From positions 1-63,590 of the forward strand of contig CAYNFH010000005.1 of assembly GCA_964396385.1 (NCBI GenBank): DNA of 63,590 nt, written 5' to 3'. This DNA is from an uncultured Chthonomonadaceae bacterium. GTDB taxonomy: Bacteria > Armatimonadota > Chthonomonadetes > Chthonomonadales > CAJBBX01. This document shows, piece by piece, positions 15,068-59,995 of this stretch (position 1 is its first letter; the number at the start of each line of letters is the position of its first letter). Position numbers and translations under genes: made by a program. Below the pieces are notes generated by a model, which was given only the letters and a program-made list of their open reading frames with translations, was not told the origin of the DNA and did no database searches.

Positions 15068-15159
15068 TCTTGCACTCCTCTGTGTAAGAGATTGGGGAAT
15101 AGCGCCCTCACAGGTGGGGCGCGCATTAGATAATGCCGGGGAAACCACTGCCAAGAATG

Positions 15160-32775: not shown

Positions 32776-32827
32776 GAGCGTTCTCTTGTTCTCGGTATTC
32801 TGACGCAGGGCCGCCCCTCCACAAATC

Positions 32828-35800: not shown

Positions 35801-36000
35801 ATCTGCGCCGGGTCCACCCCGCCGTAGGGCTGCGCGACGTAGATGATGGGCAGCCCCAGGACCGGCAGGATGTCCCTCGGCATCTGCCGAACGGCCAGCC
35901 CGGCGCCGAGCGCCACGGCCACCAGGGCCACGAGGACCGTTATAGGACGACGCAGCGCTGCAGAGACGAGACTCAAGAAAGACTCCTGCGGATTTTCCAT
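32854..36000 (-). CDS. RND efflux permease, operon 2
   Basis: 1048 aa, RND topology, [20 protein letters not shown]. The start codon ATG 36000 lies inside repeat 35992..36047. Confidence 0.9.
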
Positions 36001-36047
36001 TTTCCATTTTCAATTTGCAATTGCCGGAACCGAATTGAGAATCGAAT
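35992..36047. repeat. ATTTTCC-heptamer palindromic element with GCCGGAACCG core
   Basis: ATTTTCC ATTTTCC ATTTTCA ATTTGCA ATTG CCGGAACC GAATTGAGAATCGAAT. It fills the whole 49-nt gap between the tolC-like stop and the RND2 start. Confidence 0.75.
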
Positions 36048-40563: not shown

Positions 40564-41586
40564 CTAGATCCCCGGAATCACGCGGGGGGCGTTGTCCACG
40601 TAGAGCTTGTGGAGCACGTCGTCCGGAAGGTCCAGCGCCGATATCTGCCAGAATCCGTGCTGCGGGTAGAGCCAGTACTCGATGACCTCGTCGTCCGTCT
40701 CGAGGAACCGGAAGTGGTGCCGGTACATGTCCAGCGTGCAGCCACCGTCGGTGCCGAAGAGGATGCGGTCCTGGTACTTGAGGAAGAACTCCCGGGCGCG
40801 GCGGGGCTGCCGGCCCAGCTCCGCCATGCGGGCGGAGAAGTCCACCACGTAGTTGGGGCATCGGTCCAACAGGCGCGACGCCCGGTCCAGGTCCTCTACC
40901 TCGCTGCCCACATGCGCGCCGATGAACGTGGTGTCTGGGTGCCGCTCCACCACGCGGTCTCGCTCCTCCAGGAGCTGGAAGAGGGGCGGGTAGTCGCCGC
41001 TGTAGAAGTGCCAGTCCGGGTGCTTGATGAGCTGGGCGTACCGCTCGTTGTACTCGTCCAGCGGATCGAAGAAGGCCCAGGGGTCCGCCACATGGATCAT
41101 GACCGGCAGCCCCAGATCTCCCGCGGTCTGCCAGATGGGGTCGAGGCGCACATCATCGACGTGGACCAGACTGCCGTCGGCGTCCCGGACGGATAGGCCG
41201 AGTGACTTGAACACCTTCACCCCCTGTACGCCGGCCCGCCGGGCCTGCTGGATAGCGCGCGCCTCCCGCTCACCGAAGCCGGGCTCCGCGATCCGCTCGA
41301 ATTCCGGCACGTAGAAGACCGCGAACCGCTCCGGACAGCCCCCTTTGAGCAGCTCCAGCCGGCGCGTGAGGCGGTCTCCGCTCCAGCCGGATAGGTCCAC
41401 GAAGACCCGGATGTTGCAGGCGTCCATGATGTCGATGACCTGCTGGAGGTCCATCTGGTCGTTGTAGTGGTTGTGAGCGTCCACGGCCGGGTACTTTGCC
41501 CGCGGCACCTCCGTCTGCTTCACCCGCGCCGCCGGCCTAGGCCGGTATCTGTCCACCGTCACCATCTCGCGTACCTGATCCACCAT
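40564..41586 (-). CDS. amidohydrolase-family metal-dependent hydrolase (TIM barrel)
   Basis: YPAVDAHNHY metal-binding HxH-like start and later HVADPW, IGAHVG, FGTDGG motifs. 340 aa. Confidence 0.7.
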   Translation of the reverse strand: MVDQVREMVTVDRYRPRPAARVKQTEVPRAKYPAVDAHNHYNDQMDLQQVIDIMDACNIRVFVDLSGWSGDRLTRRLELLKGGCPERFAVFYVPEFERIAEPGFGEREARAIQQARRAGVQGVKVFKSLGLSVRDADGSLVHVDDVRLDPIWQTAGDLGLPVMIHVADPWAFFDPLDEYNERYAQLIKHPDWHFYSGDYPPLFQLLEERDRVVERHPDTTFIGAHVGSEVEDLDRASRLLDRCPNYVVDFSARMAELGRQPRRAREFFLKYQDRILFGTDGGCTLDMYRHHFRFLETDDEVIEYWLYPQHGFWQISALDLPDDVLHKLYVDNAPRVIPGI

Positions 41587-41759
41587 CGCATCCCCCTCCC
41601 GCCGTTCTGACTGGCGAAGGATTCGCGCCCCACCGCCCGCCTCCTGCCGAGTTGTTGCGTCCGCAGCGCAAAGGGGGCAGATGCGGACTTCCCCGGAACA
41701 CCGGGACTGCTCGCGCGGTATAACGCATTGGGCCGGCGCGCCGGCCCGGGAGCTATGCC

Positions 41760-42491
41760 ATGCCGCTTGAGCGCCTCTTCGATTCGACCGGCGTCGACAT
41801 CCCGCCGGACGCCCTCTACACGGATCTGGCCCTGCCGGACCCGCCGGAGGACCGTCCGTACACCTTCATCAACATGGTCTCCACGGTGGACGGAAAGATC
41901 CGGCTGGGACCGCCCGGCACCACCGCGCAGGGGCTTGGCAGCCCCACGGACCAGATGCTCATGCGCCGCCTCCGCGAGTCCGCCGATGGCGCCATCATCG
42001 GCGCGGGCACGCTCCGCCCCAGCAACATGGTCTATGATCCGCGTATGTGGCGCGCGGTCGTCACGCGCAGCGGCAGCCTGCCCCTCAAGAACCGGTTCTT
42101 CACCGACGCGCCGGACAAGGCCATCGTCTTCGCGCCGGGCACGCTCCCCGCCAATACCCGCGAGCGGCTGCAGACGGCGGCCAGAGTGGAGCTGGTGGGG
42201 GAGGATTCGGTGGACCTGCCGGAGGCCATGCGCAGGCTGCGCACGAGCTACGGTGTGCAGTACCTGGCGCTGGAGGGAGGCGCGGACCTGAACTTCGACT
42301 TCCTATCGGCGGGCCTGGTGGACGAGCTGTTCATCACCATCGCACCCAAGCTCAAGGGCGGCACGGAGGCGCCCACGCCGGTGACCGGCGAGGGGTTCCC
42401 CGGCTCCAGCTTCCTGCCGCTTGCCATCCGCTCCGTCTACCGCGACGGCAACGAGCTCTATCTGCGGTACGCCGTGCTCCGACCAACCTGA
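41760..42491 (+). CDS. RibD C-terminal-domain / dihydrofolate-reductase-like reductase
   Basis: PYTFINMVSTVDGKIRLG...GSPTDQMLMRRLRESADGAIIGAGTLR...LEGGADLNFDFLSAGLVDELFITIAPKL. Confidence 0.75.
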   Translation: MPLERLFDSTGVDIPPDALYTDLALPDPPEDRPYTFINMVSTVDGKIRLGPPGTTAQGLGSPTDQMLMRRLRESADGAIIGAGTLRPSNMVYDPRMWRAVVTRSGSLPLKNRFFTDAPDKAIVFAPGTLPANTRERLQTAARVELVGEDSVDLPEAMRRLRTSYGVQYLALEGGADLNFDFLSAGLVDELFITIAPKLKGGTEAPTPVTGEGFPGSSFLPLAIRSVYRDGNELYLRYAVLRPT

Positions 42492-42497
42492 GGAGAA

Positions 42498-42578
42498 GGT
42501 GAGAGGTGAGTGGTGAGAGGCCGGAATCCAAACACCTGAACGCCACAGCCCATCACCAATCACCTATCACCCATCACC
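42498..42578. repeat. mosaic heptamer-array element: GGTGAGA GGTGAGT GGTGAGA / GCCGGAATCC core + spacer / CATCACC AATCACC TATCACC CATCACC
   Basis: The right arm is identical at 20 of 21 nt to the right arm of 31083..31141. The left arm is the reverse complement of the right arm of 9013..9062. The spacer contains CACCTGAAC, the unit of 58135..58196. Confidence 0.8.
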
Positions 42579-42592
42579 TATACAGGAGACCC

Positions 42593-43147
42593 ATGGATAA
42601 ACTGTACCGTCAGATACTGGAGCAGCTAGGGGAGGACCCGGACCGGGAGGGGCTCGCCAAGACACCGCACCGCGCCGCGGAGGCCATGCGGTTCCTCACT
42701 CGCGGCTATAACGAGGACCCTCTGGCGATCCTTCGTGCCGCCGTGTTCGAGGAGCCCTACGATGACATGGTCATCATCCGGGACATCGAGTTCTTCAGCC
42801 TCTGCGAACACCATATTCTTCCATTCTTTGGAAAGGTCCATATCGGGTATCTCCCGGCGGGCCGGATTGTGGGAATCAGCAAGCTGGCGCGCGTGGTGGA
42901 CGTCTTCGCCCGTCGGCTTCAGGTGCAGGAGCGCATGACAGTCCAGATAGGCAGCGCCATACTGGAGGCTTTGCGGCCCAAGGGAGTGGGTGTGGTTATT
43001 GAGGCGCGCCATCTCTGCATGATGGCGCGCGGCGTGCAGAAGCAGAGCAGCAAGGTGACCACCAGCGAGATGCTGGGCTCGTTCCGAGAAGACAGGAGCA
43101 CCCGCGAGGAATTCCTGAACCTGCTTCATTTGGAGAGGAACGTCTGA
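42593..43147 (+). CDS. folE: GTP cyclohydrolase I
   Basis: [70 protein letters not shown] 42593 has CAGGAG upstream. The track start 42506 lies in the repeat. Confidence 0.9.
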
Positions 43148-43154
43148 AAGGCAA

Positions 43155-43283
43155 GGATGAAGGATGAGGGATGAAGGATGAATCCGGAACCCGGCCCTCG
43201 ACGGACCGATTCCAGTCGCCGTGACTCCCGTCCTGAAGCGTCGGAACAGCAGTCTGGAATTCATCCCTCATCCTTCATCCCTC
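43155..43283. repeat. composite element: ~28-nt GGATGAR-heptamer inverted arms enclosing a nested GACGG/CCGTC-type unit
   Basis: The left arm GGATGAAGGATGAGGGATGAAGGATGAATCC and right arm GGAATTCATCCCTCATCCTTCATCCCTC pair over about 27 bp (2 mismatches, 1 wobble, 1 bulge). The 65-nt spacer resembles 21353..21390. It lies between convergent folE and an oxidoreductase gene. Confidence 0.8.
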
Positions 43284-44278
43284 TAAAGCTGCACCACCCT
43301 CTTCTCCCGCTCCGACTGATAGCCGCCGAGAATGACCTTCAGGACGGTGATTCCCTCCTTCAGGCTCTGCTCCGGGGTCTTGTTCTGCTCGATGCACTCC
43401 ACGAAGTGCTTTATCTCCCCCACGAAGCCGTTCTCCGGCGTGAGCTCCGCCTTCTCTCGTTCGCCCTCCAGCGGCTGGAAGTACAGGTCGTTGCCGCGCC
43501 CGTAGATCTGGCCCTTCTCCCCGATGGCGTGGATCTGCCAGTGGCCGTTGGGAGCCGGATAGCCCCAGGAGGTCTGGAGGGTGCCCACCGCCCGGTTTTC
43601 GAACCGCACCATCGTCTGGGCGGTGTCCTCCGCGTCCAGGTTCGGCTGGCTGTAGTTGTCGGAAAAGCTCACCACCTCCTTGGGCTCGGAGTTGGCGATG
43701 GAGATGAGCATGTAAGTGGGGTGGTAGCCGGTGTCCAGCGCACAGCCACCGCCCGCCTCCGCGGCGGAGCCTCGCCAGCCCCACTGCGCCTTGCCGCCGC
43801 GATCCTTGATCAGGAAACAGTCGACCGTCCGGAGGCTGAAGACGCGCCCCAGCTTTCCTTCCTGGATCCAGCGCCGCGCAGTCCGTGGCGCCGGCTCGAA
43901 CATCTGGTTGTGCGCGCACATCAAGATGACGCCGTTGCTCTTCACCGCCGACTCGATGTCCTTCGCCTCCTCCAGCGAGGTGCAGAGCGGCTTCTCCGTG
44001 AGCACGTGCTTGCCCGCTTCTGCCGCCTGTACAATGGCGTCGCGGTGCAGGCGGTGCGGCAGGGCGACGTCCACCGCGTCCACCACGTCCTCCGCCAGCA
44101 TCTGGCTCCAGTCGGTGTAGACCCGCGGATCGGATCCCACCTCCTGCGCCCTTCGGTTCGCGTTCGCCTCGTTTACGTCGCAGGCGGCTGTCACGGTGGC
44201 GCGCCCCTCCACCGCCTTCCAGCCCGGGAGGTGCGCCCCCATGATCCCGCCGCAACCAACCATTCCAACCCGTATCAC
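43283..44278 (-). CDS. Gfo/Idh/MocA-family NAD(P)-dependent oxidoreductase
   Basis: MIRVGMVGCGGIMGAHL Rossmann start and EKPLCTSLEEA motif. 331 aa. Confidence 0.85.
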   Translation of the reverse strand: MIRVGMVGCGGIMGAHLPGWKAVEGRATVTAACDVNEANANRRAQEVGSDPRVYTDWSQMLAEDVVDAVDVALPHRLHRDAIVQAAEAGKHVLTEKPLCTSLEEAKDIESAVKSNGVILMCAHNQMFEPAPRTARRWIQEGKLGRVFSLRTVDCFLIKDRGGKAQWGWRGSAAEAGGGCALDTGYHPTYMLISIANSEPKEVVSFSDNYSQPNLDAEDTAQTMVRFENRAVGTLQTSWGYPAPNGHWQIHAIGEKGQIYGRGNDLYFQPLEGEREKAELTPENGFVGEIKHFVECIEQNKTPEQSLKEGITVLKVILGGYQSEREKRVVQL

Positions 44279-44339
44279 GCTCTTTCTCCTTCCGTCGGAA
44301 CAGTGCCCAGTACCAGAACCGTCTCACATGCAGAACGGC

Positions 44340-44422
44340 GGAGTATTGGAGTCATGGAGTATTGGAGTGGTTTCCCGGAATCCGGATTTCTTCACTCCAT
44401 TTCTCCACCACTCCATCACTCC
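44340..44422. repeat. octamer-array palindromic element GGAGTNNN x4 / TTCCCGGAATCCGGATTTCTTC / ACTCCNNN x4
   Basis: Read directly. GGAGT cores pair with ACTCC cores, giving 5-bp helices separated by 3-nt variable spacers. It sits in a divergent promoter region, not after a stop codon. Confidence 0.85.
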
Positions 44423-44445
44423 TTCAGCAATCGGGGAGTAACACT

Positions 44446-45792
44446 ATGCAACGATTTCAGGATACCCTTCGGCGCGGCGCGGCGGACGTAGATAAGCTGG
44501 TAGACGAATGCCGCGATGCTGCCCTTCCGTTGACCAGCGACACAGACCTCGACCCTCTGATGGACCGCATCGGCGACTCGCACTACGTGCTGCTCGGCGA
44601 GGCGTCCCACGGCACCTCCGACTACTACACCTGGCGGCTCCGGCTCAGCAAGCGGCTCATCCAGGAGAAGGGATTCTCCTTCATCGCGGTTGAGGGCGAC
44701 TGGCCGGACTGCTACCGCGTCAACCGCTACGTCAAAGGGATGCCGGATTCCGGCGCCAGCGCCTACGACGTGCTCCACGCCTTTGAGCGGTGGCCCACCT
44801 GGATGTGGGCGAACTGGGAGATAGTGGAGCTGGCCGAGTGGCTCCGTCAGCGCAACGACGGCCTGCCCGAGGAGCGGAAGGCCGGCTTCTACGGGCTAGA
44901 CGTCTACAGCCTCTGGGACTCCCTGCACGCGGTGCTGGAGTATCTGAAGGGCGTAGACGGCACCGCCTTGGAGACCGCGAAGAAGGCGTTCGCGTGCTTT
45001 GAGCCCTACTCCCAGGACGTGGTGGACTACGCGCGCGCCACGGTCGGCTTCATGCCCACGAGCTGCGAGCAGCAGGCGGTGGCCATGCTCAGCGCGCTGC
45101 GCCGCGAGATGCCGGATGCCGCGCACGACGGCCGCGAGGCGTACTTTGTAGCCGAGCAGAACGCGCTGGTGGTGAAGAACGCGGAGACCTATTACCGCGC
45201 CATGATCCGCGGCGGCGCGGCCTCCTGGAACGTCCGGGACCACCACATGGTGGAGACGCTGGAGCGGCTCATGCGCTTCCACGGCCAGGAAGCCCGCTGC
45301 ATTGTGTGGGAGCACAACACCCACATCGGGGACGCGCGGTACACGGACATGGCGCGCGCCGGCATGGAGAACGTGGGACAGCTCGTGCGAGAGCGGCGTG
45401 AACGGGACGGCGTGGTGCTGGTCGGATTTTCCTCCCACCGGGGTAGCGTAATCGCCGGTTACGAGTGGGGCGCGCCGATGCGCCGCATGGAGGTGCCTAT
45501 CGCCCGCGACGGAACATGGGAGGACATCCTGCACCGGGCAGGCGGGGAGAACAAGCTCCTGATCTTCGATGAGCGGAACGTCACCCCGGACTGGATGGAG
45601 ACGCGGGGGCACCGCGCCATCGGGGTAGTGTACGACCCGGACTACGAGCGGTTCGGCAACTATGTGCCGACGGTGCTGCCCCGCCGATACGACGCGCTGC
45701 TCTATATCGACCAGAGCGAGGCGCTCCATCCGCTCCACATGCAGGCGCGCCAGGACGCCGAGCCGCCGGAGACCTACCCGTGGGCAGCGTAG
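44446..45792 (+). CDS. erythromycin-esterase-family protein
   Basis: DSHYVLLGEASHGTSDYYTWRLRLSKRLIQEKGFSFIAVEGDWPDCYRVNRYV and WEHNTHIGDARYT. ATG 44446 has GGGGAG upstream. Confidence 0.75.
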   Translation: MQRFQDTLRRGAADVDKLVDECRDAALPLTSDTDLDPLMDRIGDSHYVLLGEASHGTSDYYTWRLRLSKRLIQEKGFSFIAVEGDWPDCYRVNRYVKGMPDSGASAYDVLHAFERWPTWMWANWEIVELAEWLRQRNDGLPEERKAGFYGLDVYSLWDSLHAVLEYLKGVDGTALETAKKAFACFEPYSQDVVDYARATVGFMPTSCEQQAVAMLSALRREMPDAAHDGREAYFVAEQNALVVKNAETYYRAMIRGGAASWNVRDHHMVETLERLMRFHGQEARCIVWEHNTHIGDARYTDMARAGMENVGQLVRERRERDGVVLVGFSSHRGSVIAGYEWGAPMRRMEVPIARDGTWEDILHRAGGENKLLIFDERNVTPDWMETRGHRAIGVVYDPDYERFGNYVPTVLPRRYDALLYIDQSEALHPLHMQARQDAEPPETYPWAA

Positions 45793-45833
45793 CGGAAGGG
45801 TGTTGGCTGAATGAGAACCGATACCCACAACTA

Positions 45834-45922
45834 GTCATTCCGAGCGAAGCGAGGAATCTGCTTTTTCCTGCAGAGTACATACCGGAGCCATAAAGCAGAT
45901 CCCTCACTCCGTTCGGGATGAC
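45834..45922. repeat. 89-bp MITE/REP-like element with ~31-nt imperfect terminal inverted repeats (GTCATTCCGAGCGAAGCGAGGAATCTGCTTT ... AAAGCAGATCCCTCACTCCGTTCGGGATGAC)
   Basis: Read directly. This is a different family from the heptamer elements. It overlaps the last 7 codons and the stop of the GNAT gene. Confidence 0.7.
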
Positions 45923-46701
45923 AACGGGGCTTGCGCTCGCGTATTGTCGCGCGGGTCTCCGCGGTACTTTCTGTGCGGCGTGTACCAGAGGAGCTCGCCT
46001 ATCTGGTAGTAGCCAACGGAAGAATAGAGCTTGGCGCCGGTGTGGCTGGCCGTTAGCACGTTCGCCAACATGCCCGCTTCGCGGTCATCCCGCAACATGC
46101 GCGCGAGGAGCGAGCGCCCGATTCCCCGGCGGCGGTACTCCGGCTTCACGTACATGCTGGAGCACCAGGCGCCGCCGCACACGGGGATGCTCTGCACCCA
46201 GCCCACCGGCACCTCCCCGTCCACCGCCATGTACTGCCGCAGCAGTGGCGGCTCCGCGTTCAGGCGCTCTGGAGAGATGGGCCCGCTTCGCTGCGCCTTC
46301 GCTAAACGGTCGGCCTGCTTCGGCGTGGTAACCCGCTCTACCGGCAGCGACTCCGGGACCCGCGGAACAGCCGTCAGGGAATGGACCATCATCGGCTCCG
46401 TGGTCCCCAGGCGGTAGCCCAGGTCCTTGAACCCGGCTCGGATTGAGCTATCCGGCTCGCCTGCGGCACGGATGAAGGAGATGGAGTACCGGCCGCGGGC
46501 GTGCCGGCGGACGATGGCGTCCACGTCGGCCGGAGGGATGCCGTGGGCCACATACTCCTCGCCGCGGTAGTCCCCGCTTTTGCGCGGCGCGTCGCGTAAC
46601 GCCCACAGCTCTTCCACACGCTCCACCTGGTACGGGTGCGTGCGGCTCCGTTGAAACGCAAAGCCCCGAACAAAAACCTCGATGGCATCCTCAAGGTTCA
46701 T
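45904..46701 (-). CDS. GNAT-family N-acetyltransferase
   Basis: VKPEYRRRGIGRSLLARMLRDDREAG (motif A, Q/RxxGxG/A). The ATG overlaps the GH42 stop (ATGA). Confidence 0.75.
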   Translation of the reverse strand: MNLEDAIEVFVRGFAFQRSRTHPYQVERVEELWALRDAPRKSGDYRGEEYVAHGIPPADVDAIVRRHARGRYSISFIRAAGEPDSSIRAGFKDLGYRLGTTEPMMVHSLTAVPRVPESLPVERVTTPKQADRLAKAQRSGPISPERLNAEPPLLRQYMAVDGEVPVGWVQSIPVCGGAWCSSMYVKPEYRRRGIGRSLLARMLRDDREAGMLANVLTASHTGAKLYSSVGYYQIGELLWYTPHRKYRGDPRDNTRAQAPLSSRTE

Positions 46702-48836
46702 TCCGCTGCGCCGCCCTCCGTCAGCACCGTGCCTCCGTACGGATGCAGGGTTACGCTGCCGGCCACCGGCGCGCAGGTCAGCGCGTCGGAGAAGGCGACC
46801 GTGCCCAGGTCTACCGTCGCCTCCTCCGGCGTAAAGTTCAGCAGGAATAGCCAGGAGCGGCCGTCTTCGGCCACCCGCCGCTGTGCGGAGACGCCCTCTG
46901 GCAGCACGGCGGGCGCGGCGCGCCTCAGCGCCAGCTCCCGCGCCAGGGCGCCCAGGAAGTCATCACAGAAGCGCGCGTCATTGCGGGACGCGACGTAGTA
47001 GGCGCGGCCCATTGCGGTCTCCTTCACCGTAAGCGCCGGCTGCCCTGCGTAGTAGTCCTGCCCGTACGTGGCAAGGACCCGCGCGCCGGTGCTGACGGGT
47101 GACGGTTGACGGTTGACGGACCCTGATCCGTCCGTCCTCCGTCCTCCGTCCTCCATCGTATCCGCATGAACCACATCGCAATACTGCCTGGCCACATATA
47201 CTCCGCGCAGGCCCAGCACCTCGCCCTCGGGAGTGGGCAGCACCGTCTGCCGCTGGTGGTCATGGAGCACGTCCGTCTCCTCCGCCCAGACTCCCAGAAC
47301 GGGCCGCAGGGGACCGGGAAAGCCTCCCAAGAAGCAGAGGTCGTGCTCGTCCACGATTCCGGTCAGATAGGTGGCGACGAAGATGCCACCGCGCTCCACG
47401 AAGGCGCCGATGCGCTCGGCGGCGCCCGGGCGCAGCATGTAGAGCATGGGCGCGACCAGCAGCCGGTACCCGGAGAGCTCCACCGTGGAATCGATCACGT
47501 CCACAGGAATGCCGCGCCGCCAGAAGGGGCGGTAGTGCGCCTCGCACGTGGCGCGATACGCCTTGTCGTTGTTGCGCGGCCCCTTAGCCTGCTGGATGCC
47601 CCACGCGTTCTCCCAGTCGTAGATGAGCGCGACCTCCGCCTCCACGCGCGATCCAACCGCCGACTCCAGGCGCTCCAAGTCCGCGCCCAGCTCGGCCACC
47701 TCTCGGAAGATGCGGTTGTGCTCATGCCCCACGTGGTCCACAATCGCCCCGTGGAACTTCTCGCTCCCGCCCCGCCCCTTCCGCCACTGGAAATAGAGCA
47801 CGCCGTCGGAGCCGTGCGCCACTGCCTGCAGGCCGTTGATGCGGTTCAGGCCCGGCCGCCGGGGCCGGCTCACGCCGTGCCAGTTTGTGACGCTGGGGGT
47901 GGTCTCCATCAGCAGCCACGGCTTCCCGCCTTTTAGCGCCCGGTTGATGTCGTGCACAAAGGCCACGCCGCACGCCACGTCCACGTCGCTCTGCTCGCCG
48001 TGCCACCCGGGATAGCTGTCCCAGCACACTACGTCCAGCGGCTTCGCCAGGCGCCAGTAGTCATACGCGTCGTAGGTGCCCATGAGGTTGGTGGTCACCG
48101 GCACATGGGGTGAGTGGCGGCGGAGCGGCGCGATCTCGTTCTCCAGGAAGGTTATGCACTGGTCGGTCATGAACCGCTTCCAGTCCAGCTCCATGCCGTG
48201 CACGTTCTGGTCAACGGCGGTGATCTGATCCCATGCGGTGATAGTGTGGCTCCAGAAGGCGGACCACCAGGCACGGTTCAACGCGTCCAGGTCGCCGGAA
48301 TACCGCTGGCGCAGCCAATCGCGAAAGGCCGCCATGCAGAGGTCGCAGTAGCAGTAGCCGCCGTACTCGTTGGAGACGTGCCAGAGCTGGAGCGCGGGGT
48401 GCTTGCCGTACCGCTCGGCGAGGCGCTCGTTGACGGCGCGGACCTTCTCACGATAGACGGGCGAGGTGAGGCAGTGGTTGTGCCGGCCGCCGTGCGGATC
48501 CCGCAGGCCGTTGGGCTGCACGCGCCGCACCTCCGGGTACTTGAGAGACATCCAGGCCGGTTTAGAGCCGGAGGGCGTAGCCAGGTTTACCCGCACTCCG
48601 TTTGTATGCAGCCGCTCCATGGTCTGGTCCAGCCAGTCGAAGGTGTACCGGCCCTCCTCGGGCTCCAGGGCTGCCCAGGCGAAGATGCCGAGGCTCACGC
48701 TGTTGACGTGAGCGAGCCGCATGAGCCGGAGGTCCTCCTCCAGCACGTCCGGCCTATCGAGCCACTGGTCCGGGTTATAGTCCGCCCCGTAGAGCAAGTG
48801 CAGGAAGAGGGGCTTGTCGCTATTGCCTGTAGCCAA
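46698..48836 (-). CDS. GH42 beta-galactosidase carrying an in-frame repeat insertion
   Basis: YGADYNPDQW and HVSNEYGGYCYCDLCMAAFRDWL (GH42 Cys cluster). TTG start with GGAGGA 6 nt upstream. The residues MEDGGRRTDGSGSVNRQPSPVS are encoded by repeat 47094..47157. Confidence 0.85.
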   Translation of the reverse strand: MATGNSDKPLFLHLLYGADYNPDQWLDRPDVLEEDLRLMRLAHVNSVSLGIFAWAALEPEEGRYTFDWLDQTMERLHTNGVRVNLATPSGSKPAWMSLKYPEVRRVQPNGLRDPHGGRHNHCLTSPVYREKVRAVNERLAERYGKHPALQLWHVSNEYGGYCYCDLCMAAFRDWLRQRYSGDLDALNRAWWSAFWSHTITAWDQITAVDQNVHGMELDWKRFMTDQCITFLENEIAPLRRHSPHVPVTTNLMGTYDAYDYWRLAKPLDVVCWDSYPGWHGEQSDVDVACGVAFVHDINRALKGGKPWLLMETTPSVTNWHGVSRPRRPGLNRINGLQAVAHGSDGVLYFQWRKGRGGSEKFHGAIVDHVGHEHNRIFREVAELGADLERLESAVGSRVEAEVALIYDWENAWGIQQAKGPRNNDKAYRATCEAHYRPFWRRGIPVDVIDSTVELSGYRLLVAPMLYMLRPGAAERIGAFVERGGIFVATYLTGIVDEHDLCFLGGFPGPLRPVLGVWAEETDVLHDHQRQTVLPTPEGEVLGLRGVYVARQYCDVVHADTMEDGGRRTDGSGSVNRQPSPVSTGARVLATYGQDYYAGQPALTVKETAMGRAYYVASRNDARFCDDFLGALARELALRRAAPAVLPEGVSAQRRVAEDGRSWLFLLNFTPEEATVDLGTVAFSDALTCAPVAGSVTLHPYGGTVLTEGGAAE
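47094..47157. repeat. GACGGNN x4 / CCCTGA / NNCCGTC x4 palindromic element located inside a coding sequence
   Basis: GACGGGT GACGGTT GACGGTT GACGGA CCCTGA TCCGTC CGTCCTC CGTCCTC CGTCCTC. GACGG pairs with CCGTC in every unit. Confidence 0.8.
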
Positions 48837-48848
48837 TTACGTCCTCCA

Positions 48849-49268
48849 TCAGAATTCGAGCGTGGAGACACCGCCCGGCCCATCGTAGTGGAGTCTACCG
48901 GCGTTTAGGATATCGCGCCCAATGAGGTAATCAAAGCCGCCGAAATCGTGCACCGCAGCAGGGACAACGAGGAACTCAACCACTAGATTGGGAAGCTCAA
49001 CACTTATCTGGTAGAGGTAAGCTGTGGAGCCAATGGTCGTTATCGTGGTAACAGGTCGGGCACCAACCGGGCTCAAGCTGAGCCGCCCCGGTAGCGAGGC
49101 AGACAGAACCGAGTTGGAAGCGCCCGTGTCGACCAATCCCGCCACGGCGATGGGAGGCGGAACGCTCGTGCCACTGTGCTGAAGCTGCTGAGCAAGGAGC
49201 GCGGAGGGGCCAATGCGAACCTCAATGAGCGCTCCGCGCTGCGTGATTGGCCGGGAAACCGCGGCCAT
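48849..49268 (-). CDS. retropepsin-like (clan AA) aspartic protease
   Basis: GLVDTGASNSVL (D-T/S-G active site) and C-terminal YLIGRDIL flap/dimer motif. 139 aa. It looks noticeably less GC-rich than its neighbours by eye. Confidence 0.7.
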   Translation of the reverse strand: MAAVSRPITQRGALIEVRIGPSALLAQQLQHSGTSVPPPIAVAGLVDTGASNSVLSASLPGRLSLSPVGARPVTTITTIGSTAYLYQISVELPNLVVEFLVVPAAVHDFGGFDYLIGRDILNAGRLHYDGPGGVSTLEF

Positions 49269-49271
49269 GCG

Positions 49272-49532
49272 CTATGAGCCCAAAGGAGACGGAATGCTGA
49301 TCGGCTCACCATCCGGCCGGAACTCGTGGACAAGGAAAGGCGCGTTTAGATACCGGCGTGTACCTTCCTCAACGGCTGCGCGCTCGCTGGTATACGTGCC
49401 AATTATGTTGGTCCCCTTGATAAGCACGTACTGACGGGGAGCCGTCCTCAAGAGCTCGTCCAGCGAACGAGCGAGCGTTCTAAGCTCCTGGCTCAAGACT
49501 TCCTCGGTCGTCGCGGCCGACTTTGCACTCAT
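49272..49532 (-). CDS. small hypothetical protein (86 aa) translationally linked to the retropepsin-like gene
   Basis: ATG 49532 has GGAGGCGAGAGGG upstream. The upstream 113 codons of the track ORF look non-coding (R/W/C-rich). 3-nt gap to the protease gene. Confidence 0.5.
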   Translation of the reverse strand: MSAKSAATTEEVLSQELRTLARSLDELLRTAPRQYVLIKGTNIIGTYTSERAAVEEGTRRYLNAPFLVHEFRPDGEPISIPSPLGS

Positions 49533-49867
49533 CCCTCTCGCCTCCAGTGATTCACTTCTTGAGCAATTCTGTATCCGGCGTGTCATCTCCTGGATTCCGC
49601 ACGTGCCGTTCAGTCGCCCCAGCGGCACTTGGCTCCAACCAAGCCCCCTTTGTCGGAGGACGAGAGCAGGATTCCGCGCGAGGTTGCCTCCACCGTGTCT
49701 CGGGACAAGGGGGTGGGCGGCCAGGGTCTTCTCCGCGCTGTGGGGCTCGACCGCGTAGTGCGGCCGGATGCCCGACCGCATCATCCAGTTGCAGTCGGTG
49801 AATTTCATATCAACTCTCAGTATGGACCAACTGAGGCGCTGGACCGGCAGTCTATTCAGCCGCGGGG

Positions 49868-51511
49868 TCACTCCTCACGTATCGTCACCATGGCGCCGGC
49901 GCGAACACTCTCGGCACGTGAGTTCCGCCCGCTTGGCCAGTGGACGGTAACGGTGGCGGAGGTGGCGCTACCAATGCCGACGTGCACACGGGGATCCGAT
50001 GAGGCAAAGAAGGACCCGTCGGCGTGGCAAATGTGTACCTGCTTGCGCCCGCCCGCTTCCACAGTCACGATGGCGCCGTACCCGTCGCGGTTGCTCTTCT
50101 TGCCTGTGAGCCGCACAGAGATGGAATTGCCGGTTGTTGACGTTTCGTTGTGGAGGAGCAGGGGAGGCCCTTCTGCGTCCGCGACAAGCGCATCAACCCG
50201 GCCGTCGTTGTCGAAGTCTCCGGTAGCGAGGCCGCGACCAACTATTGGGCGCAGCAGGTCCGGGCCTGCGCTTGCACTCAGGTCCGTGAACCGCTTCCCG
50301 CCTTCGTTCCGGAAAAGCAGGGTCGGCTCCCGATAGGCGCGGGACGGCTCGTATGCCACGATGTTATCCGCTATGTAACCGTTCGCGAACATGATGTCCA
50401 GGTAGCCGTCATTATCGAAGTCCAGGAGTTTCGCGCCGAACGACAGGTACCTCATGGCCGGCCCCGCTACTCCGTACGCCGGACTCTCATCCAGGAACGT
50501 GTGCTCACCCTGGTTGATAAGCACGAGCTTGTTCTCCAGGCTGAACGTGCCCACGACCATATCCGGGCGGCCGTCGCCATTTATGTCTCCGTAGTCGACG
50601 CCCATCCCACCGTAGGGCTTACCGTTCTCTGTATATGCGGCGCCTGCCTCTTCGCCAATCTCCTTGAACCGGCCGCCGCGGTTCAGGAAGAAGTCGCTCT
50701 TTACCTCGTCATCTGCCAGGTACAGACTCGGGTGCCCGACCCCGTCCGGGTCGAAGAAGACTGCACCGAGCACTTTGCCGGTCGCCGCGTTCAGTCCAAC
50801 CAGGCGGGTGACGTCCCTGAAATGTCCTCCGCCGTCGTTGTGGTAGAGGACCGGGTGTTCGGCATCATATACCGTGGGTGAGCACGCCGTCTCGAAGTCT
50901 TTGACGTGGCAGAGCTGGACAGAATCAGGGCCGAAACGGCAGTAATTGCCGATGAGAAGGTCCAGTTTGCCGTCGTTATCGTAGTCGCCGAAGGCGCAAG
51001 CGCTGCCCCAGGGCTGGGGAGGGATTCCAGCTTCGCGGCTCACGTCGCGAAACGACTTCCCGCGTTCATTGTGGAGTAGAGCACCCCCGCGGTATGCAGA
51101 CAGGTAGATATCTTCATACCCGTCGTTGTCATAGTCTCCCACGGCCACGCCCATCCACCAATTGGTCGGCAGGGAAGCGATTCCCGTCTGGGCAGTCACA
51201 TTCGTGAACTTCCCACGTCCGTCCCCGCGGTAGAGCGCAACGCGTTGAGACATGAGAAGTACGTCCAGGTTGCCATCACTGTCGTAGTCGAGGAAGGCAC
51301 AGCCACCCCCCGGACCCTGCAAAATGTTGATAGGCCGCTTCCCAGGAATGGAGAAGCGGAAAGATATCCCGCACGATGGCACAACGTCCGTGAAACGAGC
51401 CCTGGGTTGGCCTCCCGGCCCGTTTTGCGCGCCTGAGGCCGGCCGGCTGTGGCCGCATCCGGCCAGCGCTCCGGCAGTTAGGAGCACCAGGAGAGTGTTA
51501 TGGGCTGACAC
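49868..51511 (-). CDS. CRTAC1-family lipoprotein (FG-GAP/VCBS + ASPIC/UnbV), cassette 2
   Basis: Lipobox LAGC, repeated DYDSDGNLDVLL / DYDNDGYEDIYL / DYDNDGKLDLLI units, and C-terminal ...FASSDPRVHVGIGSATSATVTVHWPSGRNS. Confidence 0.85.
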   Translation of the reverse strand: MSAHNTLLVLLTAGALAGCGHSRPASGAQNGPGGQPRARFTDVVPSCGISFRFSIPGKRPINILQGPGGGCAFLDYDSDGNLDVLLMSQRVALYRGDGRGKFTNVTAQTGIASLPTNWWMGVAVGDYDNDGYEDIYLSAYRGGALLHNERGKSFRDVSREAGIPPQPWGSACAFGDYDNDGKLDLLIGNYCRFGPDSVQLCHVKDFETACSPTVYDAEHPVLYHNDGGGHFRDVTRLVGLNAATGKVLGAVFFDPDGVGHPSLYLADDEVKSDFFLNRGGRFKEIGEEAGAAYTENGKPYGGMGVDYGDINGDGRPDMVVGTFSLENKLVLINQGEHTFLDESPAYGVAGPAMRYLSFGAKLLDFDNDGYLDIMFANGYIADNIVAYEPSRAYREPTLLFRNEGGKRFTDLSASAGPDLLRPIVGRGLATGDFDNDGRVDALVADAEGPPLLLHNETSTTGNSISVRLTGKKSNRDGYGAIVTVEAGGRKQVHICHADGSFFASSDPRVHVGIGSATSATVTVHWPSGRNSRAESVRAGAMVTIREE

Positions 51512-52733
51512 CGGCCTGTTCGAGGGCGTGGATCTCCCGCCGCGCCGTCTTCACGTCCAGCCCGCGGTCCACCATCTCTTCGTACTGAACCATGGCGTTT
51601 TGCGGGATTCCCTTGCGCAGATACCAGCGGGCGAACTCCAGCCGCAGGTTCGCATCCATGGGGTGCGCATTGATGCGGGCATTGTACTGGCGTACCTTAG
51701 CGGTATCGGCATAGACCTGGTCATGGCGCTTGATAGCTGCCGTGGCGGCAGCCGAGTTGCCCAGCGCGCGGTTCACACGCGCGAGCAGAAAGAGCGTGTC
51801 CGGATTGCCGGGCGCGATGGCGTCCGCTCGCTGAAGATGGACGAGCGCTTCTTTCCACCGGTGCTGGTTCAGGTAAGCTCGCCCCAACAGCATCTCCGCG
51901 GCGGAGTGGTCTCGCCGGCGCAGCTCGCCGGCCCGTTTCAACACGTCGGTGAGCGCCGATCGCGCGGCATCGTAGTCCTGCGGCGATGTCGCGGTCAGGA
52001 ACAGAGCCTCGCCCAGATACAGCTTGCCCTCCAGTACCTGCGGGAACCGCCGGACGATAATTCGCGCGTCAGCCAGGGCGTCGTCCAGCCTCTTTTCGTT
52101 TACTTCCGCCTGATAGAGGCCCACATAGGGCCACGGAGAGTTCGGCATCAGGTCGCGAGCTTTCAGAAAAGATGCTTCGCCCTCTCCCGGTATGCCTTGA
52201 TCCAGCGAAAGGTCCCCCCGCAATGCCCAGGCATTTCCAGACCGGGGATCGATCTTAGTGGCGGTATCGGCGTCGTGCCATGCCATCTCACTGCGATTCG
52301 CATTGCGGCGAAGAGCAGCCCGCTCCATGTAGGCCCGCGCTTCCCTCGGATGTCGCGCGATATAGCTGGAGAGAATAGCATCGGCAGGACGAAATCCACC
52401 GAATTCGTAGATGGCGCGAGCCCACCCGACCCAGTCGGTCAGGCGGTCCGGTTCGAGCTCGGCGGCATGCTGATAGGCCTTTGCGGCGCGCGCCCACTGT
52501 TCGGTGGCGAGGGCACGTGAGCCGAGCTGCTCAAAGATCTCAGCTTCGTTCAGGTGCGTGGGTGCGGCCGCCGCGAGCTCCTCGATGCTGGCGTGTTCGA
52601 TCCAACGCCGGTGTGACCTTACCTGCCAGGCGCGGACAATGCCGGCGCCCGCACAGAGGACCAGAAGAAAGAGGAGAATGAAAAGACGCAGGCGCATGGG
52701 TGACTTCCCGGATATAACGCTCTGAGAGGGCAT
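51498..52733 (-). CDS. TPR-repeat protein, cassette 2
   Basis: TM/signal RLRLFILLFLLVLCAGAGIV followed by TPR-like units. TAGAAT lies 8 nt upstream of ATG 52733, so the mRNA may be leaderless. Alternative start ATG 52697. Confidence 0.7.
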   Translation of the reverse strand: MPSQSVISGKSPMRLRLFILLFLLVLCAGAGIVRAWQVRSHRRWIEHASIEELAAAAPTHLNEAEIFEQLGSRALATEQWARAAKAYQHAAELEPDRLTDWVGWARAIYEFGGFRPADAILSSYIARHPREARAYMERAALRRNANRSEMAWHDADTATKIDPRSGNAWALRGDLSLDQGIPGEGEASFLKARDLMPNSPWPYVGLYQAEVNEKRLDDALADARIIVRRFPQVLEGKLYLGEALFLTATSPQDYDAARSALTDVLKRAGELRRRDHSAAEMLLGRAYLNQHRWKEALVHLQRADAIAPGNPDTLFLLARVNRALGNSAAATAAIKRHDQVYADTAKVRQYNARINAHPMDANLRLEFARWYLRKGIPQNAMVQYEEMVDRGLDVKTARREIHALEQAGVSP

Positions 52734-52756
52734 ATCCGTCTATTCTACGCCAGACG

Positions 52757-52791
52757 GCAAAACGGCCGGCCCGGGAGCGTCCGGACCGGCC
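52757..52791 (-). terminator. Rho-independent terminator after the lipoprotein gene
   Basis: On the minus-strand RNA, GGCCGGUCCGG / loop / CCGGGCCGGCC forms an 11-bp stem with one G.U, followed by GUUUUG. Confidence 0.7.
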
Positions 52792-52813
52792 CAAATCCTG
52801 CGAATACAGAAGC

Positions 52814-53080
52814 CTAGGGACCGCCGGTCTTGCCGGCCTTGGCAGCCGCTTCTCCGACCGGGCCCTGGCCCATCCGCGCCTTAATCATGGCCTTCTGCTG
52901 CGGCGGGATGTTGGGGTTGTTCTCAATCGCCTGGACCTGCGAGTCGCTAGGCTTGTACTTCTTGGACGCGTCGAACTTCACGTCGGTCTGCCCCGTGTCG
53001 TGGCTGCAGCCTGCCACAAAGCACAGGCACCCCAGGATGGTTACCGCAACAATCCCAATACGACCGCACTTCATGTCCAT
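52814..53080 (-). CDS. small lipoprotein
   Basis: Lipobox FVAGC after MDMKCGRIGIVAVTILGCLC. 88 aa. Starts 4 nt after the pseudopilin stop. Confidence 0.55.
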   Translation of the reverse strand: MDMKCGRIGIVAVTILGCLCFVAGCSHDTGQTDVKFDASKKYKPSDSQVQAIENNPNIPPQQKAMIKARMGQGPVGEAAAKAGKTGGP

Positions 53081-53084
53081 GATC

Positions 53085-53951
53085 TTACCAGAGGTTACCG
53101 TCCAGCGACTGGATCCAGAGGTTCTTCGAGTACGAGAGCGACCCCTTGTGGACCGCCTTGGAGTGACCGTCCAGGAAGGTGGCGTTGCCGGTGCCCGTAT
53201 GGCGGTAGCGCGGGCGCAGGAAGCAGGTGCGATCCCAGTTCCAGTTCTGACCGTTCTGCGCCAGGTCGCAGTCTCCCACGCCGGGGCGCAACGCCCCCTG
53301 TGTTCCGGGCTTGTTGCCTACGTCGGCGGTCCCGTCAATGATGCACTGGCCGCTCGAGTCGTAGCCGGCGCACACACTGGCATCACAGAAGCTCCACTGG
53401 TCCGTGACGATCTCCATCCAGTTCTCGCCGCCGCTATTCTGGCCTTTGTCCATGAAGGCCATCATGTCTGCCGGACGATCGATCATAGCGAGCGTCACCA
53501 CGGGGCCGCCCTTCCAGTTGTTCCAGGAGGCGTCTCCGTCCGGGAAGAGTTTCGCGTTAACGCCAATCTTCCAGTTCTGGTTTCGCACGGGAGCGGAGGG
53601 GCAGTCCCACACTCCTCCATGGCCTCCAGAAGTTACGTTTGTTCCGGTTCCGGTCTGCGCGCCGTTCTTGATGTACGGATTCAGGATCTCGCTGATCTCC
53701 GGATAGGGCCAGCTACCGGGGGGATTGCCTTCTCGCGGCTGCTGGCGCTCCGGAAGCGTCTCGTCGTAGTCCTGAACGTACTGCATCACCGCCAGACCAA
53801 GCTGTTTGGTGTTGCTCAGACAGTTAATCGCGCGGGCCTTCTCCCGGGCCTGAGCAAACACGGGGAAGAGAATGGCTGCCAGGATCGCGATAATGGCTAT
53901 CACGACGAGCAGCTCGATCAGGGTGAAGGCCGTTCTACTTCGGTACGTCAT
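53085..53951 (-). CDS. prepilin-type N-terminal cleavage/methylation domain protein with H-X9-DG motif (second copy)
   Basis: [51 protein letters not shown] and C-terminal [19 protein letters not shown]. Confidence 0.85.
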
Positions 53952-54063
53952 TGGTTTCTCCTTGGAGCCTGAAGACGATTGCTCTACGCACTGCTAATGA
54001 TGATGCCGGGGAGATCGAGAAGCAGTACAGCCAGTATAAAGTATTCTTAATCGGAGTGCAACT

Positions 54064-54100
54064 GATTTAGTGGTAAATCCGCCTGATTTAGCGATAAATG
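54064..54100. promoter_or_regulatory. two tandem 16-bp palindromes (GATTTAGTGGTAAATC and GATTTAGCGATAAATG), candidate LacI operators, next to TATAAT 54124..54129
   Basis: Read directly. Centre-to-centre spacing is 21 bp. TATAAT ends 6 nt before ATG 54136, which suggests a leaderless lacI-like mRNA. Confidence 0.5.
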
Positions 54101-54135
54101 TTTAGCTGAACGTCCTGTCGGCGTATAATCGGCCT

Positions 54136-55203
54136 ATGCGGCGCAGCACTGCTCCTACCCTCGCCGACGTCGCGCAGCAAGCCGGAGTCACCGCGATGGT
54201 GGCTTCGGTAGTGCTCAACGGCGCGCGCTCCTCTACCCGCGTCTCCGCGGCCACGCGGGCGCGCGTCCAGGAGGCCGCCGCCCAGCTCGGCTACCGCCGT
54301 AATGCCCTGGCGTTCGGCCTCACCCGCAGCCGGATCGATACTCTCGGGGTGGTCGCAACCGTGGTCGGGGAGGATATCAACCTCTACTTCCTGGAGCTGC
54401 TCAGCGGAATCCTGAGTGCGGCCGTGGAGCGCGGCCAGTCCACCAAAGTTTTTTCGCTTGCCGACTGGAAGCAGGACGCGGGCCGCATCCCAGGATTCTG
54501 CGACGGCCGCGTGGACGGGATCATCCTGATCGCGCCTTCCTTGCCGGATGATGTAGCGCTTGCGCTCCCGGCCCATACGCCGTTTGTAGCGATCCACTGC
54601 GACCGGCCCCTGGCGGGCATCCCGAACATCGGGATAGACGATGAGGGGGCAGCATACAGGATTACGAGCGACCTGTTGACCCGCGGTCACCGGCGGATCC
54701 TCCACTTCTCCGGCGACGCCGACATCGCCAGCGCGGCACAGCGGCTGAAAGGCTACCGTCGCGCGCTGGCGGACGCGGGCATCCCGTGGGATCCGTCACT
54801 CGTGCTGCCGGGCGGGTACTACATCGGGTCCGGGCGGGAGAGCATGCTGCGAGTGCTGCGGGAGTTTCCCGGCCAGGCTATGCCCTCGGCCGTGTTCTGC
54901 GCCAGCGACGCCATCGCATACGGCACGATGGAGGTGCTGGCGGAGCAGGGCGTGCGCGTGCCGGACCAGATCTCCGTTGTCGGGTTCGATGACGTGCTTC
55001 TGGCCCGCACCACGCGGCCGCCGCTCACCACCGTGCGCCAGCCCTTCCGCGCCATGGGGCGCCGCGCGGTGGAGATCCTGCTGGCCCGCATTGCGCACGG
55101 TGACGACCACACGGCCGATGCGGAGGAAGATTCGCGCGCCGAGCTCTTCCCGGTGGAGATAGTGGAGCGCGAGTCCGTCGGGCCGCCAAGGAGCGACGGA
55201 TGA
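54136..55203 (+). CDS. LacI-family transcriptional regulator (second copy, divergent from pseudopilin)
   Basis: MRRSTAPTLADVAQQAGVTAMVASVVLNGARS HTH plus a sugar-binding core. The stop codon lies in repeat 55195..55231. Confidence 0.85.
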   Translation: MRRSTAPTLADVAQQAGVTAMVASVVLNGARSSTRVSAATRARVQEAAAQLGYRRNALAFGLTRSRIDTLGVVATVVGEDINLYFLELLSGILSAAVERGQSTKVFSLADWKQDAGRIPGFCDGRVDGIILIAPSLPDDVALALPAHTPFVAIHCDRPLAGIPNIGIDDEGAAYRITSDLLTRGHRRILHFSGDADIASAAQRLKGYRRALADAGIPWDPSLVLPGGYYIGSGRESMLRVLREFPGQAMPSAVFCASDAIAYGTMEVLAEQGVRVPDQISVVGFDDVLLARTTRPPLTTVRQPFRAMGRRAVEILLARIAHGDDHTADAEEDSRAELFPVEIVERESVGPPRSDG

Positions 55204-55231
55204 CGGAGGACGGGAGACCGACGGAGGTGAC
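55195..55231. repeat. GACGG-heptamer array (GACGGAT GACGGAG GACGGGA GACCGAC GGAGGTGAC), half element
   Basis: Its reverse complement matches the CCGTC arrays at 21366..21396 and 32831..32855 unit for unit, but in a different order. Confidence 0.65.
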
Positions 55232-55324
55232 CCATGGCCACATGTGCTAAGCCGCACTTTACGCCCCAGGAGTACCTGGCCGGGCGGTCTGCTCCGAGAG
55301 AATAGAGGATTGTCAGCAGTGGAA

Positions 55325-56422: not shown

Positions 56423-56426
56423 CGGG

Positions 56427-56542
56427 GATTTTCCATTTTCCATTTTTCAGTTTTCAATTCTCAATTTGAATTCCGGAGTGTTGGAAGACTCGTGGCCCAC
56501 CGTTCTGCAATGGAAAACCGAAAACCGAAAACTGAAAATCGG
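56427..56542. repeat. NNTTTTC-heptamer palindromic element with GAATTCCGGAG core (same family as 35992..36047)
   Basis: The left array is GATTTTC CATTTTC CATTTTTC AGTTTTC AATTCTC AATTTGA ATTCCGG. The right array is GGAAAAC CGAAAAC CGAAAAC TGAAAATC. The right arm encodes MENRKPKTENR of the kinase. Confidence 0.8.
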
Positions 56543-58126: not shown

Positions 58127-58134
58127 AGGCGGAA

Positions 58135-58196
58135 GGCGTTCAGGTGTTCAGGTGTTCAGGTATTCAGGTTCGGAATCCTGAACACCCGGTGTTCAC
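58135..58196. repeat. octamer-array element GYGTTCAG x4 / TTCGGAAT / CCTGAACACC + GGTGTTCAC
   Basis: A 10-bp stem (58159-58168 with 58177-58186, one mismatch) around loop TTCGGAAT. It lies between convergent genes and contains the stop codon of 58193..59866. Confidence 0.8.
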
Positions 58197-59866: not shown

Positions 59867-59995
59867 GAAGAAGCTCCTGTCGGCTAAGAGTGTGTGATCA
59901 GGTTCGGCACTCACCCGTGCTACCCCTTGCCGGGCAGGACCGAGCAGGTTTATCCCGAACGCGTTATCGATATGCCAGTCCAAGAAGACGAGAGT

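Follow-up and report, generated by a model that had tools for sequence, protein, structure and literature searches.

How does a hairpin built from 7-nt tandem repeats come to be part of a conserved enzyme? This question is raised by a GH42 β-galactosidase gene (46698–48836, minus strand) in a 63.6-kb stretch of DNA from a Chthonomonadales bacterium, hereafter called the window. The gene is intact, with 712 codons specifying a 712-aa product recognized by Pfam, by a Protein Data Bank (PDB) match and by AlphaFold2 modeling. An earlier note had described, at 47094–47157 within this gene, a palindromic array of heptamers whose sequence and translation are as quoted there, and had likened it to the Rickettsia palindromic elements (RPEs) found in reading frames. 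We conclude that the segment is probably a copy of a dispersed heptamer-array hairpin, kept as a passenger that is in frame, free of stops and located in a permissive turn.

The GH42 product displays the Pfam domains Glyco_hydro_42 (residues 19–389), 42M (400–569...) and 42C (648–706), and is 53% identical to the Rahnella enzyme 5e9a (E = 8e-249). In a HMMER alignment, residues 13–559 of the product align to residues 38–586 of 5e9a, and residues 584–706 to 587–707, leaving residues 560–583 without a counterpart. The 5e9a residues 586 and 587, which match residues 559 and 584 of the query, are directly adjacent in the structure. A clean 24-column gap lies opposite the insert in 22 aligned homologues. 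Among the 120 best homologues, the corresponding stretch measures 6 residues in 117, 7 in one and 10 in one, and reaches 30 only here. The insertion is missing from 119 of these 120 homologues as well as from three crystal structures; it aligns to no residue of 5e9a or of the homologues. As delimited by the protein alignment, the in-frame, stop-free insertion spans 47088–47159 on the minus strand, corresponding to 72 nt and codons 560–583, and encodes the 24 residues TMEDGGRRTDGSGSVNRQPSPVST. The insert size proposed earlier, about 21–24 residues in frame between stretches of GH42 sequence, agrees with the clean gap in every homologue examined, but the accompanying 64-nt delimitation was slightly too short.

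We then asked what the segment might do to the fold. The AlphaFold2 model of the product, with a predicted template modeling (pTM) score of 0.89 and TM-scores of 0.91/0.95 against 5e9a, depicts residues 563–582 as coil with a predicted local distance difference test (pLDDT) score below 50, flanked by strands 547–557 and 586–591 of domain B. The model suggests that the insert enlarges a β-hairpin turn of the noncatalytic domain B as a disordered loop, which is likely to be solvent-exposed. The surface loop proposed earlier is thus matched, in this model, by a low-confidence coil between two β strands, from which we infer its exposure. E157 and E311, which we take to be the GH42 catalytic glutamates, are invariant in a 23-sequence alignment, and the enzyme carrying the insert is presumably still active.

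The insert is a quasi-palindrome almost throughout, with four GACGGNN heptamers, an 8-nt loop and CCGTC heptamers. On the plus strand, the left arm (47093–47119) reads TGACGGG TGACGGT TGACGGT TGACGG, i.e., four heptamers TGACGG(G/T)T, and forms the 3' arm on the mRNA (GTCAACC units). It is followed by the loop ACCCTGAT (47120–47127), whose bases are unpaired in the fold, and by the right arm (47128–47154), which reads TCCGTC CGTCCTC CGTCCTC CGTCCTC C and forms the 5' arm on the mRNA (GGAGGAC units). Tandem Repeats Finder detects both arrays with a period of 7, with 3.9 copies and 95% matches on the left, and 3.4 copies and 100% matches on the right. Folding of the mRNA strand gives one hairpin of −46.7 kcal/mol (z = −4.9), equaled by 0/200 shuffles; in the fold computation made across the window's elements, the insert scores −40.8 kcal/mol (z = −4.65), and when folded as DNA it gives a weaker signal (z = −2.1). 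The arms pair as 5-bp GACGG:CCGTC blocks separated by 2x2 mismatches, the spacers TT/GT remaining unpaired opposite CT, and when the 62-nt core is compared with its own reverse complement, 30 of 62 positions do not match. The palindrome described earlier therefore holds for the 5-bp blocks but is imperfect, since two spacer bases per unit are unpaired. At the gathering score, Rfam 15 has no match in the whole window; there is an irrelevant E = 0.2 hit beside the GH42 element.

Read as coding sequence, the insert stands out from its host gene. Its codon usage is the poorest among all 24-codon windows of the GH42 gene, with a mean log relative codon frequency of −1.39 (gene-wide windows: mean −0.84, standard deviation 0.14, minimum −1.32), and its GC content at third codon positions is 0.71 versus 0.88. 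All three minus-strand frames through the insert are open, and all three plus-strand frames are stopped. Since only the minus strand is open, such an element can persist in a gene solely in the observed orientation and with a length divisible by three. The insert resembles readable noncoding DNA, with a sequence that appears to be ruled by hairpin and heptamer structure and not by codon usage. These properties bear on the idea that the hairpin or the peptide is itself functional, either as an mRNA pause, processing or stability signal or as a Gly/Arg/Ser/Pro loop selected for trimer formation or localization. The mRNA structure is indeed very stable, the insertion is identical in five sequencing runs from four studies (see below), and loops of other enzymes also carry in-frame inserts. 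We nevertheless find a selected function quite improbable, because the segment is unique among 120 homologues, has poor codon usage, is predicted to be disordered, and is of a kind of sequence that is found in unrelated proteins and mostly in noncoding DNA.

Could the segment have arisen as a chimera during assembly across a repeat, or be an ancestral GH42 loop lost elsewhere? Repeats attract misassembly, and word depth is increased over 47112–47159. We compared the junctions and a possible empty allele in eight metagenome runs (X1, X5–X11). Both junctions are crossed with 0 differences by independently assembled contigs of five soil metagenome runs (X1, X5, X6, X8 and X10) from four studies. 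Since five runs carry both junctions, on single contigs that span them, the GH42 insertion is not a misassembly, a possibility named in the earlier note. The higher word depth is due to words common to other copies. With the segment also missing from 119 homologues and three solved structures, and with its DNA having the form of a family hairpin with non-gene-like codon usage, an artefactual or ancestral origin is extremely improbable.

The GH42 hairpin has relatives throughout the window. We found about 13 elements that consist of an array of a 7-nt (twice 8-nt) unit, a center and the complementary array. Their units vary and include GGATGAG, GACCACG, GACGGNN, AGGTGAT, AGGTGAG, AAGGATG, ATTTTCC, GGAGTATT and AGGTGTTC. 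Although the window is 89% coding, 12 of 13 elements are intergenic, in spacers of every gene orientation (P about 3e-11), which leaves the GH42 copy as the sole element of the 13 in coding DNA. Arrays with a period of 7 number 11 in the window, whereas periods of 5, 6, 8 and 9 are each represented by 1–2. The pattern GACGGNNGACGGNNGACGG has 10 matches in the window with ≤2 mismatches, compared with 0.76 on average, and at most 5, in shuffles. Six elements fold with z ≤ −4; some are degenerate or are solo arrays. The inner units GAC(C/G)GAC-GGA of the GH42 copy recur in the GACGG-type copies at 21353, 32827 and 55190, and partly at 16347. We rejected intrinsic (Rho-independent) terminators as an explanation: within the scanned region 41000–60500, no T-tract follows the heptamer hairpins and no terminator was called, and inspection of the sequence reveals no T-run after the GH42 hairpin. 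Of the earlier claim that the family is mobile rather than a set of terminators, the second part agrees with these data; mobility itself is not established.

How a copy may have reached the GH42 gene is suggested by sibling copies. The same metagenomes contain contigs with unrelated flanks that match 47093–47154 over its full length with 5–8 mismatches. The sibling loop is ACCCGGAT, with the CCGGA motif that is frequent at the centers of the window's other elements; the GH42 loop has a T at 47124 where contigs of other copies have a G, which amounts to a G>T change in the family center motif. Since the arms are so asymmetric (30 of 62 positions), these siblings share a specific mismatched arm pair and loop. 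Judging from these sequences, the shared asymmetry and loop favor copying of a formed element, since independent local growth would not be expected to yield them. In the scenario that we propose, there is a dispersed noncoding family, normally intergenic, of hairpins in which one arm repeats a 7-nt unit a few times in tandem and the other arm repeats its complement. The GH42 gene would have received one of these copies, either directly or with a sibling as template. The preformed copy may have been brought in by some enzyme, or through a template switch to a sibling. Its survival would have depended on 1) a length of 72 nt, which is exactly 24 codons, 2) an orientation with three stop-free frames, and 3) a domain B β-hairpin turn tolerating 24 disordered Gly/Arg/Ser/Pro-rich residues. 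The insert would be a tolerated passenger, not an adaptation.

The main rival to this scenario is growth in place, in which a short seed in the GH42 loop would have expanded by 7-nt slippage, followed by inverted duplication or by palindrome correction via intramolecular template switching, without any element having moved. Growth in place would account for the solo arrays and half elements of the window (10855, 55190 and 32827) and for the rapid, local, in-frame remodeling of a leucyl-tRNA synthetase (LeuRS) site in Thermoflexales described below, and PMC4692102 and PMC4679880 ascribe the excess of heptamer simple repeats to slippage. It is unlikely in the GH42 gene, since homologues have no seed and the gap is clean, since unlinked siblings have the same mismatched arm pair and loop, which independent growth should not reproduce, and since 72 nt would have taken several independent steps, with the frame restored each time.

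Orthologous sites in related genomes differ in whether they carry an element. The spacer between a RibD_C-like gene and folE contains an 85-nt hairpin in the window. In three relatives with FolE 74–82% identical to that of the window, this spacer is 14 nt long (L220), 28 nt long (L218) or absent (L221), and none has a hairpin; in a further relative, L217, it holds a different degenerate array. Downstream of folE, an AAGGATG hairpin is found here and in L219 (3290–3330), and not in L217, L218 and L220. Since orthologous sites in the folE region are filled in some genomes and empty in others, elements have been gained or lost there. The AAGGATG unit is used in three related Chthonomonadales-like genomes (window 43153–43283; L219:3290–3330; L217:59–79); unit types thus seem, from these sequences, to be conserved across the lineage though several types coexist per genome. 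At the 42497–42581 hairpin, AGGAGA is found on both sides (42490–42496 and 42584–42589), and the empty spacer of L220 has a single CAGGAGAAC. The AGGAGA flanks, not seen at other elements, are either a 6-bp target duplication or simply a ribosome-binding site.

We wondered how widespread such hairpins might be. A search of 185,579 species genomes for exact matches to three GACGGNN units followed by a 2–30-nt spacer and two NNCCGTC units yielded at least 109 loci, against an estimated chance expectation of about 0.03. The forward loci listed are from Chloroflexota, Gemmatimonadota, Saprospiraceae and other Bacteroidota, Acidobacteriota, Planctomycetota, Abditibacterium and a few Proteobacteria. 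True hairpins of the mirrored polarity, in which the CCGTC arm comes first, are present at 71 loci, including ones in Streptomyces, Kitasatospora, Kofleriaceae and Pyrinomonadaceae. Judging from these loci, hairpin polarity is lineage-specific and consistent only within a genome. Double-strand-break healing with 3' heptamer addition at both ends was considered as a source and rejected, since it predicts a single polarity and there are 71 mirrored versus at least 109 forward loci. In the Kofleriaceae metagenome-assembled genome (MAG) SMAG_U15526, eight reverse-polarity CCGTC...GACGG copies (L153, L165, L166, L169, L174, L178, L193 and L210) share conserved termini and the center TCCGGATC-N-GATCCGGA. 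Most start a few bases past a stop codon, and several are located where two genes converge.

Real genes read through about six of the at least 109 forward loci listed. In alignments with PDB structures, hairpin-encoded extra segments amount to ~20 aa in LeuRS and ~29 aa in xylulokinase of the same Thermoflexales MAG, and to 18–19 aa in the glycyl-tRNA synthetase β subunit (GlyS-beta) of a Propylenella MAG. The encoded peptides are similar to the GH42 one (DGRR...PSSV...). The LeuRS site gives a view of how such inserts change. A 95%-identical relative has the same outer hairpin with a different center, which is another hairpin, and 33 additional nt; a 91%-identical relative has a direct CAGAnnn array; relatives that are 69–83% identical have other low-complexity inserts; and three relatives have none. 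The versions of the insert (L138:2400–2520, L216 and L215, all from Thermoflexales MAGs) are all in frame and at the same surface site. Heptamer inserts therefore turn over fast once present, probably by slippage, by conversion from other copies or by nested insertion. In a Thermomicrobiales MAG (L095:6500–6640), a hairpin has outer GAGTGAC/GAGTAAC arms and inner GACGGGA arms, and these layered heptamer types suggest growth or insertion at the center of a palindrome.

The sibling copies and the empty orthologous intergenic sites, compared at the sequence level, favor copy-and-insert, and mobility of the family is plausible but unproven. Several observations weigh against the origin that we prefer for the GH42 segment. 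Inspection revealed no consistent target-site duplication at the GH42 copy or at most others, and the ~40 window open reading frames (ORFs) scanned include no transposase, no repetitive extragenic palindrome (REP)-associated tyrosine transposase (RAYT) and no reverse transcriptase. Orthologues had been proposed in the earlier note as the place to look for an empty site; none was found, the closest orthologue in the protein database being 65% identical. GTDB genomes contain no match to the GH42 gene with >60% identity, two metagenome-contig scans also found nothing, and there is no synteny with the closest GH42 homologue (P0002). Likewise, no joint skipping the segment occurs in the eight metagenome runs, where the sibling contigs are assigned to the same genome by similar depth alone. 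Members of the family have architecture and a center motif in common but differ in the sequence of their arms, as transposable elements do not usually do, and the Thermoflexales LeuRS displays large in-place changes within inserts of this kind.

Heptamer-array hairpins are now seen in Armatimonadota, Chloroflexota, Gemmatimonadota, Bacteroidota, Acidobacteriota, Planctomycetota, Myxococcota and Actinomycetota. It is possible, if rather doubtful, that they represent a widespread unnamed class of self-propagating or self-templating repeats, whose mechanism would recognize structure and periodicity and not a fixed sequence. New copies might then enter old centers, and the class would be a recurrent source of fast-evolving disordered loops in essential enzymes (LeuRS and GlyS) and in GH42.

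We compared the GH42 element with known families of palindromic repeats. RPEs, as presented in PMC10969869 (citing Ogata et al. 2000), are about 150 bp long and form ten sequence families in Rickettsia, each with a conserved peptide; the intragenic share is nearly half for some families. As in that description, the palindromic repeats studied here are found both in intergenic regions and in frame in unrelated housekeeping genes, to which they add a fold-compatible peptide. In contrast to RPEs as described there, the GH42 element is 62–72 nt long with 7-nt units of variable sequence, and only ~1/13 copies in the window is intragenic as compared with nearly half for some RPE families. The host also differs, since it belongs to Chthonomonadales and not to Rickettsia, its FolE being 82% identical to that of the Chthonomonadales MAG swi_bin.234, with named hits from Armatimonadota. 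The in-frame read-through, seen in LeuRS, GlyS-beta and xylulokinase as well as here, bears out the RPE-like behavior proposed earlier, without making the element an RPE. REPs, including REPINs, have one stem of 5–13 bp and a short loop, and end in a tetranucleotide tag, GTAG or CGTC, that is unpaired; CGTC-type REPs have no associated transposase gene, and REPs are sometimes found in frame in coding regions (PMC3733652, PMC3116915). Like them, the window elements are short, high-copy palindromes at gene ends and overwhelmingly extragenic (12/13 here), and every unit of the GH42 element contains CGTC/GACG. Unlike in REPs, the stem is a tandem array of 3–5 heptamers, with CGTC inside every paired unit and no unpaired terminal tag. 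No RAYT (Y1 transposase) flanked by repeats is found among the ~40 window ORFs. Miniature inverted-repeat transposable elements have terminal inverted repeats and a target-site duplication of fixed length; here, on inspection, a direct repeat (AGGAGA) flanks one element only.

In architecture, the comparison is with heptamer repeats. Cyanobacterial heptamer repeats (STRR, GGGGAYT) were reportedly described by Mazel in 1990. The small dispersed repeats (SDRs) of Nostoc, reported by Elhai et al. in 2008, are said to be hairpin repeats of about 21–27 nt with fixed sequences. They reportedly seem to move although no transposase is evident, and occur nested within one another and within heptamer repeats; their fixed sequences contrast with the variable arms in the window. 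PMC4692102 describes 70–75 convergent inverted pairs of GGGAATC heptamer arrays in Xanthomonas that are able to form stem-loops. There, Xanthomonas and cyanobacterial heptamer repeats are strongly intergenic, their length varies between related genomes with the type being kept, and each genome has essentially one G-rich unit, discussed as a G-quadruplex former; the passages searched make no mention of in-frame genic copies. The GH42 element resembles the inverted pairs described there, in that at least three tandem 7-nt units and a convergent complementary array form a stem-loop; it differs in that the window has at least eight different units. Overall, the behavior is like that of RPEs and intragenic REPs and the architecture like that of inverted heptamer-repeat pairs, with length, sequence families, terminal tag and host setting the element apart from RPEs and REPs.

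A closer inspection of the other members in the window offers a glimpse of their diversity. Three have strongly folding arms: 1) 16347–16400, with GACCACG/GACGGCG arms and the center GGAATCCGGAG (−40.3 kcal/mol, z = −5.2), 2) 31081–31142, a near-perfect AGGTGAT/ATCACCT hairpin (−47.9 kcal/mol, z = −8.0), and 3) 44340–44422, an octamer variant in a divergent intergenic region with GGAGTATT/ACTCC arms and the center CCGGAATCCGG (−43.8 kcal/mol, z = −6.2). The arms of the 31081–31142 hairpin hold both stop codons of the convergent genes at 29356–31083 (plus) and 31123–32775 (minus), in TAG GTGAT and GG TGA, and the repeat therefore defines both gene ends. Two flank folE, namely the AGGTGAG/TCACC hairpin at 42497–42581 in the spacer after the RibD_C-like gene (z = −5.0), and the one at 43153–43283 downstream of folE, with AAGGATG/CATCC arms and an 80-nt center (z = −4.3). 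ORF callers stretch folE upstream through the heptamer hairpin (window 42506–42590; L219:2501–2560). The folE ORF is 213 aa long and its Pfam domain starts at residue 32, P0257 being 205 aa long; several database FolE entries of 196–214 aa probably carry false N-terminal extensions. The second octamer variant, 58134–58190, lies between convergent genes and has a AGGTGTTC array and the center TCGGAATCC (z = −3.2); both elements with 8-nt units have the same overall plan and center motif as the heptamer elements.

GACGG-type members are found at 21353–21396, between convergent genes, where the left arm is short and the CCGTC arm long, and as half elements at 32827–32869, which reads TCCGGATGACTCCTGAT GACGGGA GACGGAG GACCGAC on the minus strand in an intercistronic gap of a resistance-nodulation-division (RND) operon, and at 55190–55226 (plus strand), which adjoins a gene with its ATG at 55244. 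The final units of the latter give GGAGGTG five bases upstream of this ATG. Weaker members are the intercistronic 9011–9064, with a GGATGAG array that contains the upstream stop codon, the center AATCCGGA and a degenerate CTCACC arm (z = −1.9); 35992–36045, an intercistronic ATTTTCC array with a weak inverted partner and the center GCCGGAACC (z = −0.8); 56428–56538, with intercistronic ATTTTCC and GAAAACC arrays ~45 nt apart and GAATTCCGGAG beside the first (z = 0.1); and 10855–10877, a solo array of TTCAACC x3 without an inverted partner. Six of the 39 TCCGGA sites in the window fall in the 1.7% of sequence covered by elements. TCCGGA or CCGGAAT(CC) is at the centers of 9011–9064, 16347–16400, 32827–32869, 43153–43283, 44340–44422 and 56428–56538, and also at hairpin centers in a Fimbriimonadales locus (L031) and the Kofleriaceae MAG (L153–L210). 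Many purine-rich units of the window (GGAGG, AGGTGA and AAGGA) are Shine-Dalgarno-like, and their partner units anti-Shine-Dalgarno-like. We set this resemblance aside as an explanation, since it does not fit the units of other phyla (GACGGTT, GACGGTA and CCGTCAG). The window genes (10865–12583, 49868–51511 and 14141–15163, for example) are typical of Armatimonadota/Planctomycetota soil bacteria. Two FG-GAP/ASPIC-UnbV proteins are encoded next to TPR proteins, and a DUF1559 protein bears an N-terminal methylation motif; the window also has two RND efflux operons, a gene resembling that of erythromycin esterase, and no mobile-element genes.

The best-known palindromic repeats that colonize reading frames are those of Rickettsia, along with scattered cases among REPs. 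Here, the same outcome is reached from a repeat of different structure, an inverted pair of 7-nt tandem arrays, in free-living soil bacteria, and further cases occur in aminoacyl-tRNA synthetases and in a sugar kinase from unrelated phyla. Heptamer hairpins mislead gene callers, through N-terminal extensions and stop codons in repeats, and attract assembly breaks. These findings offer a handle on the old question of why heptamer repeats are overrepresented in some bacteria and how they spread, and reveal one way in which conserved proteins come by disordered loops that change rapidly.

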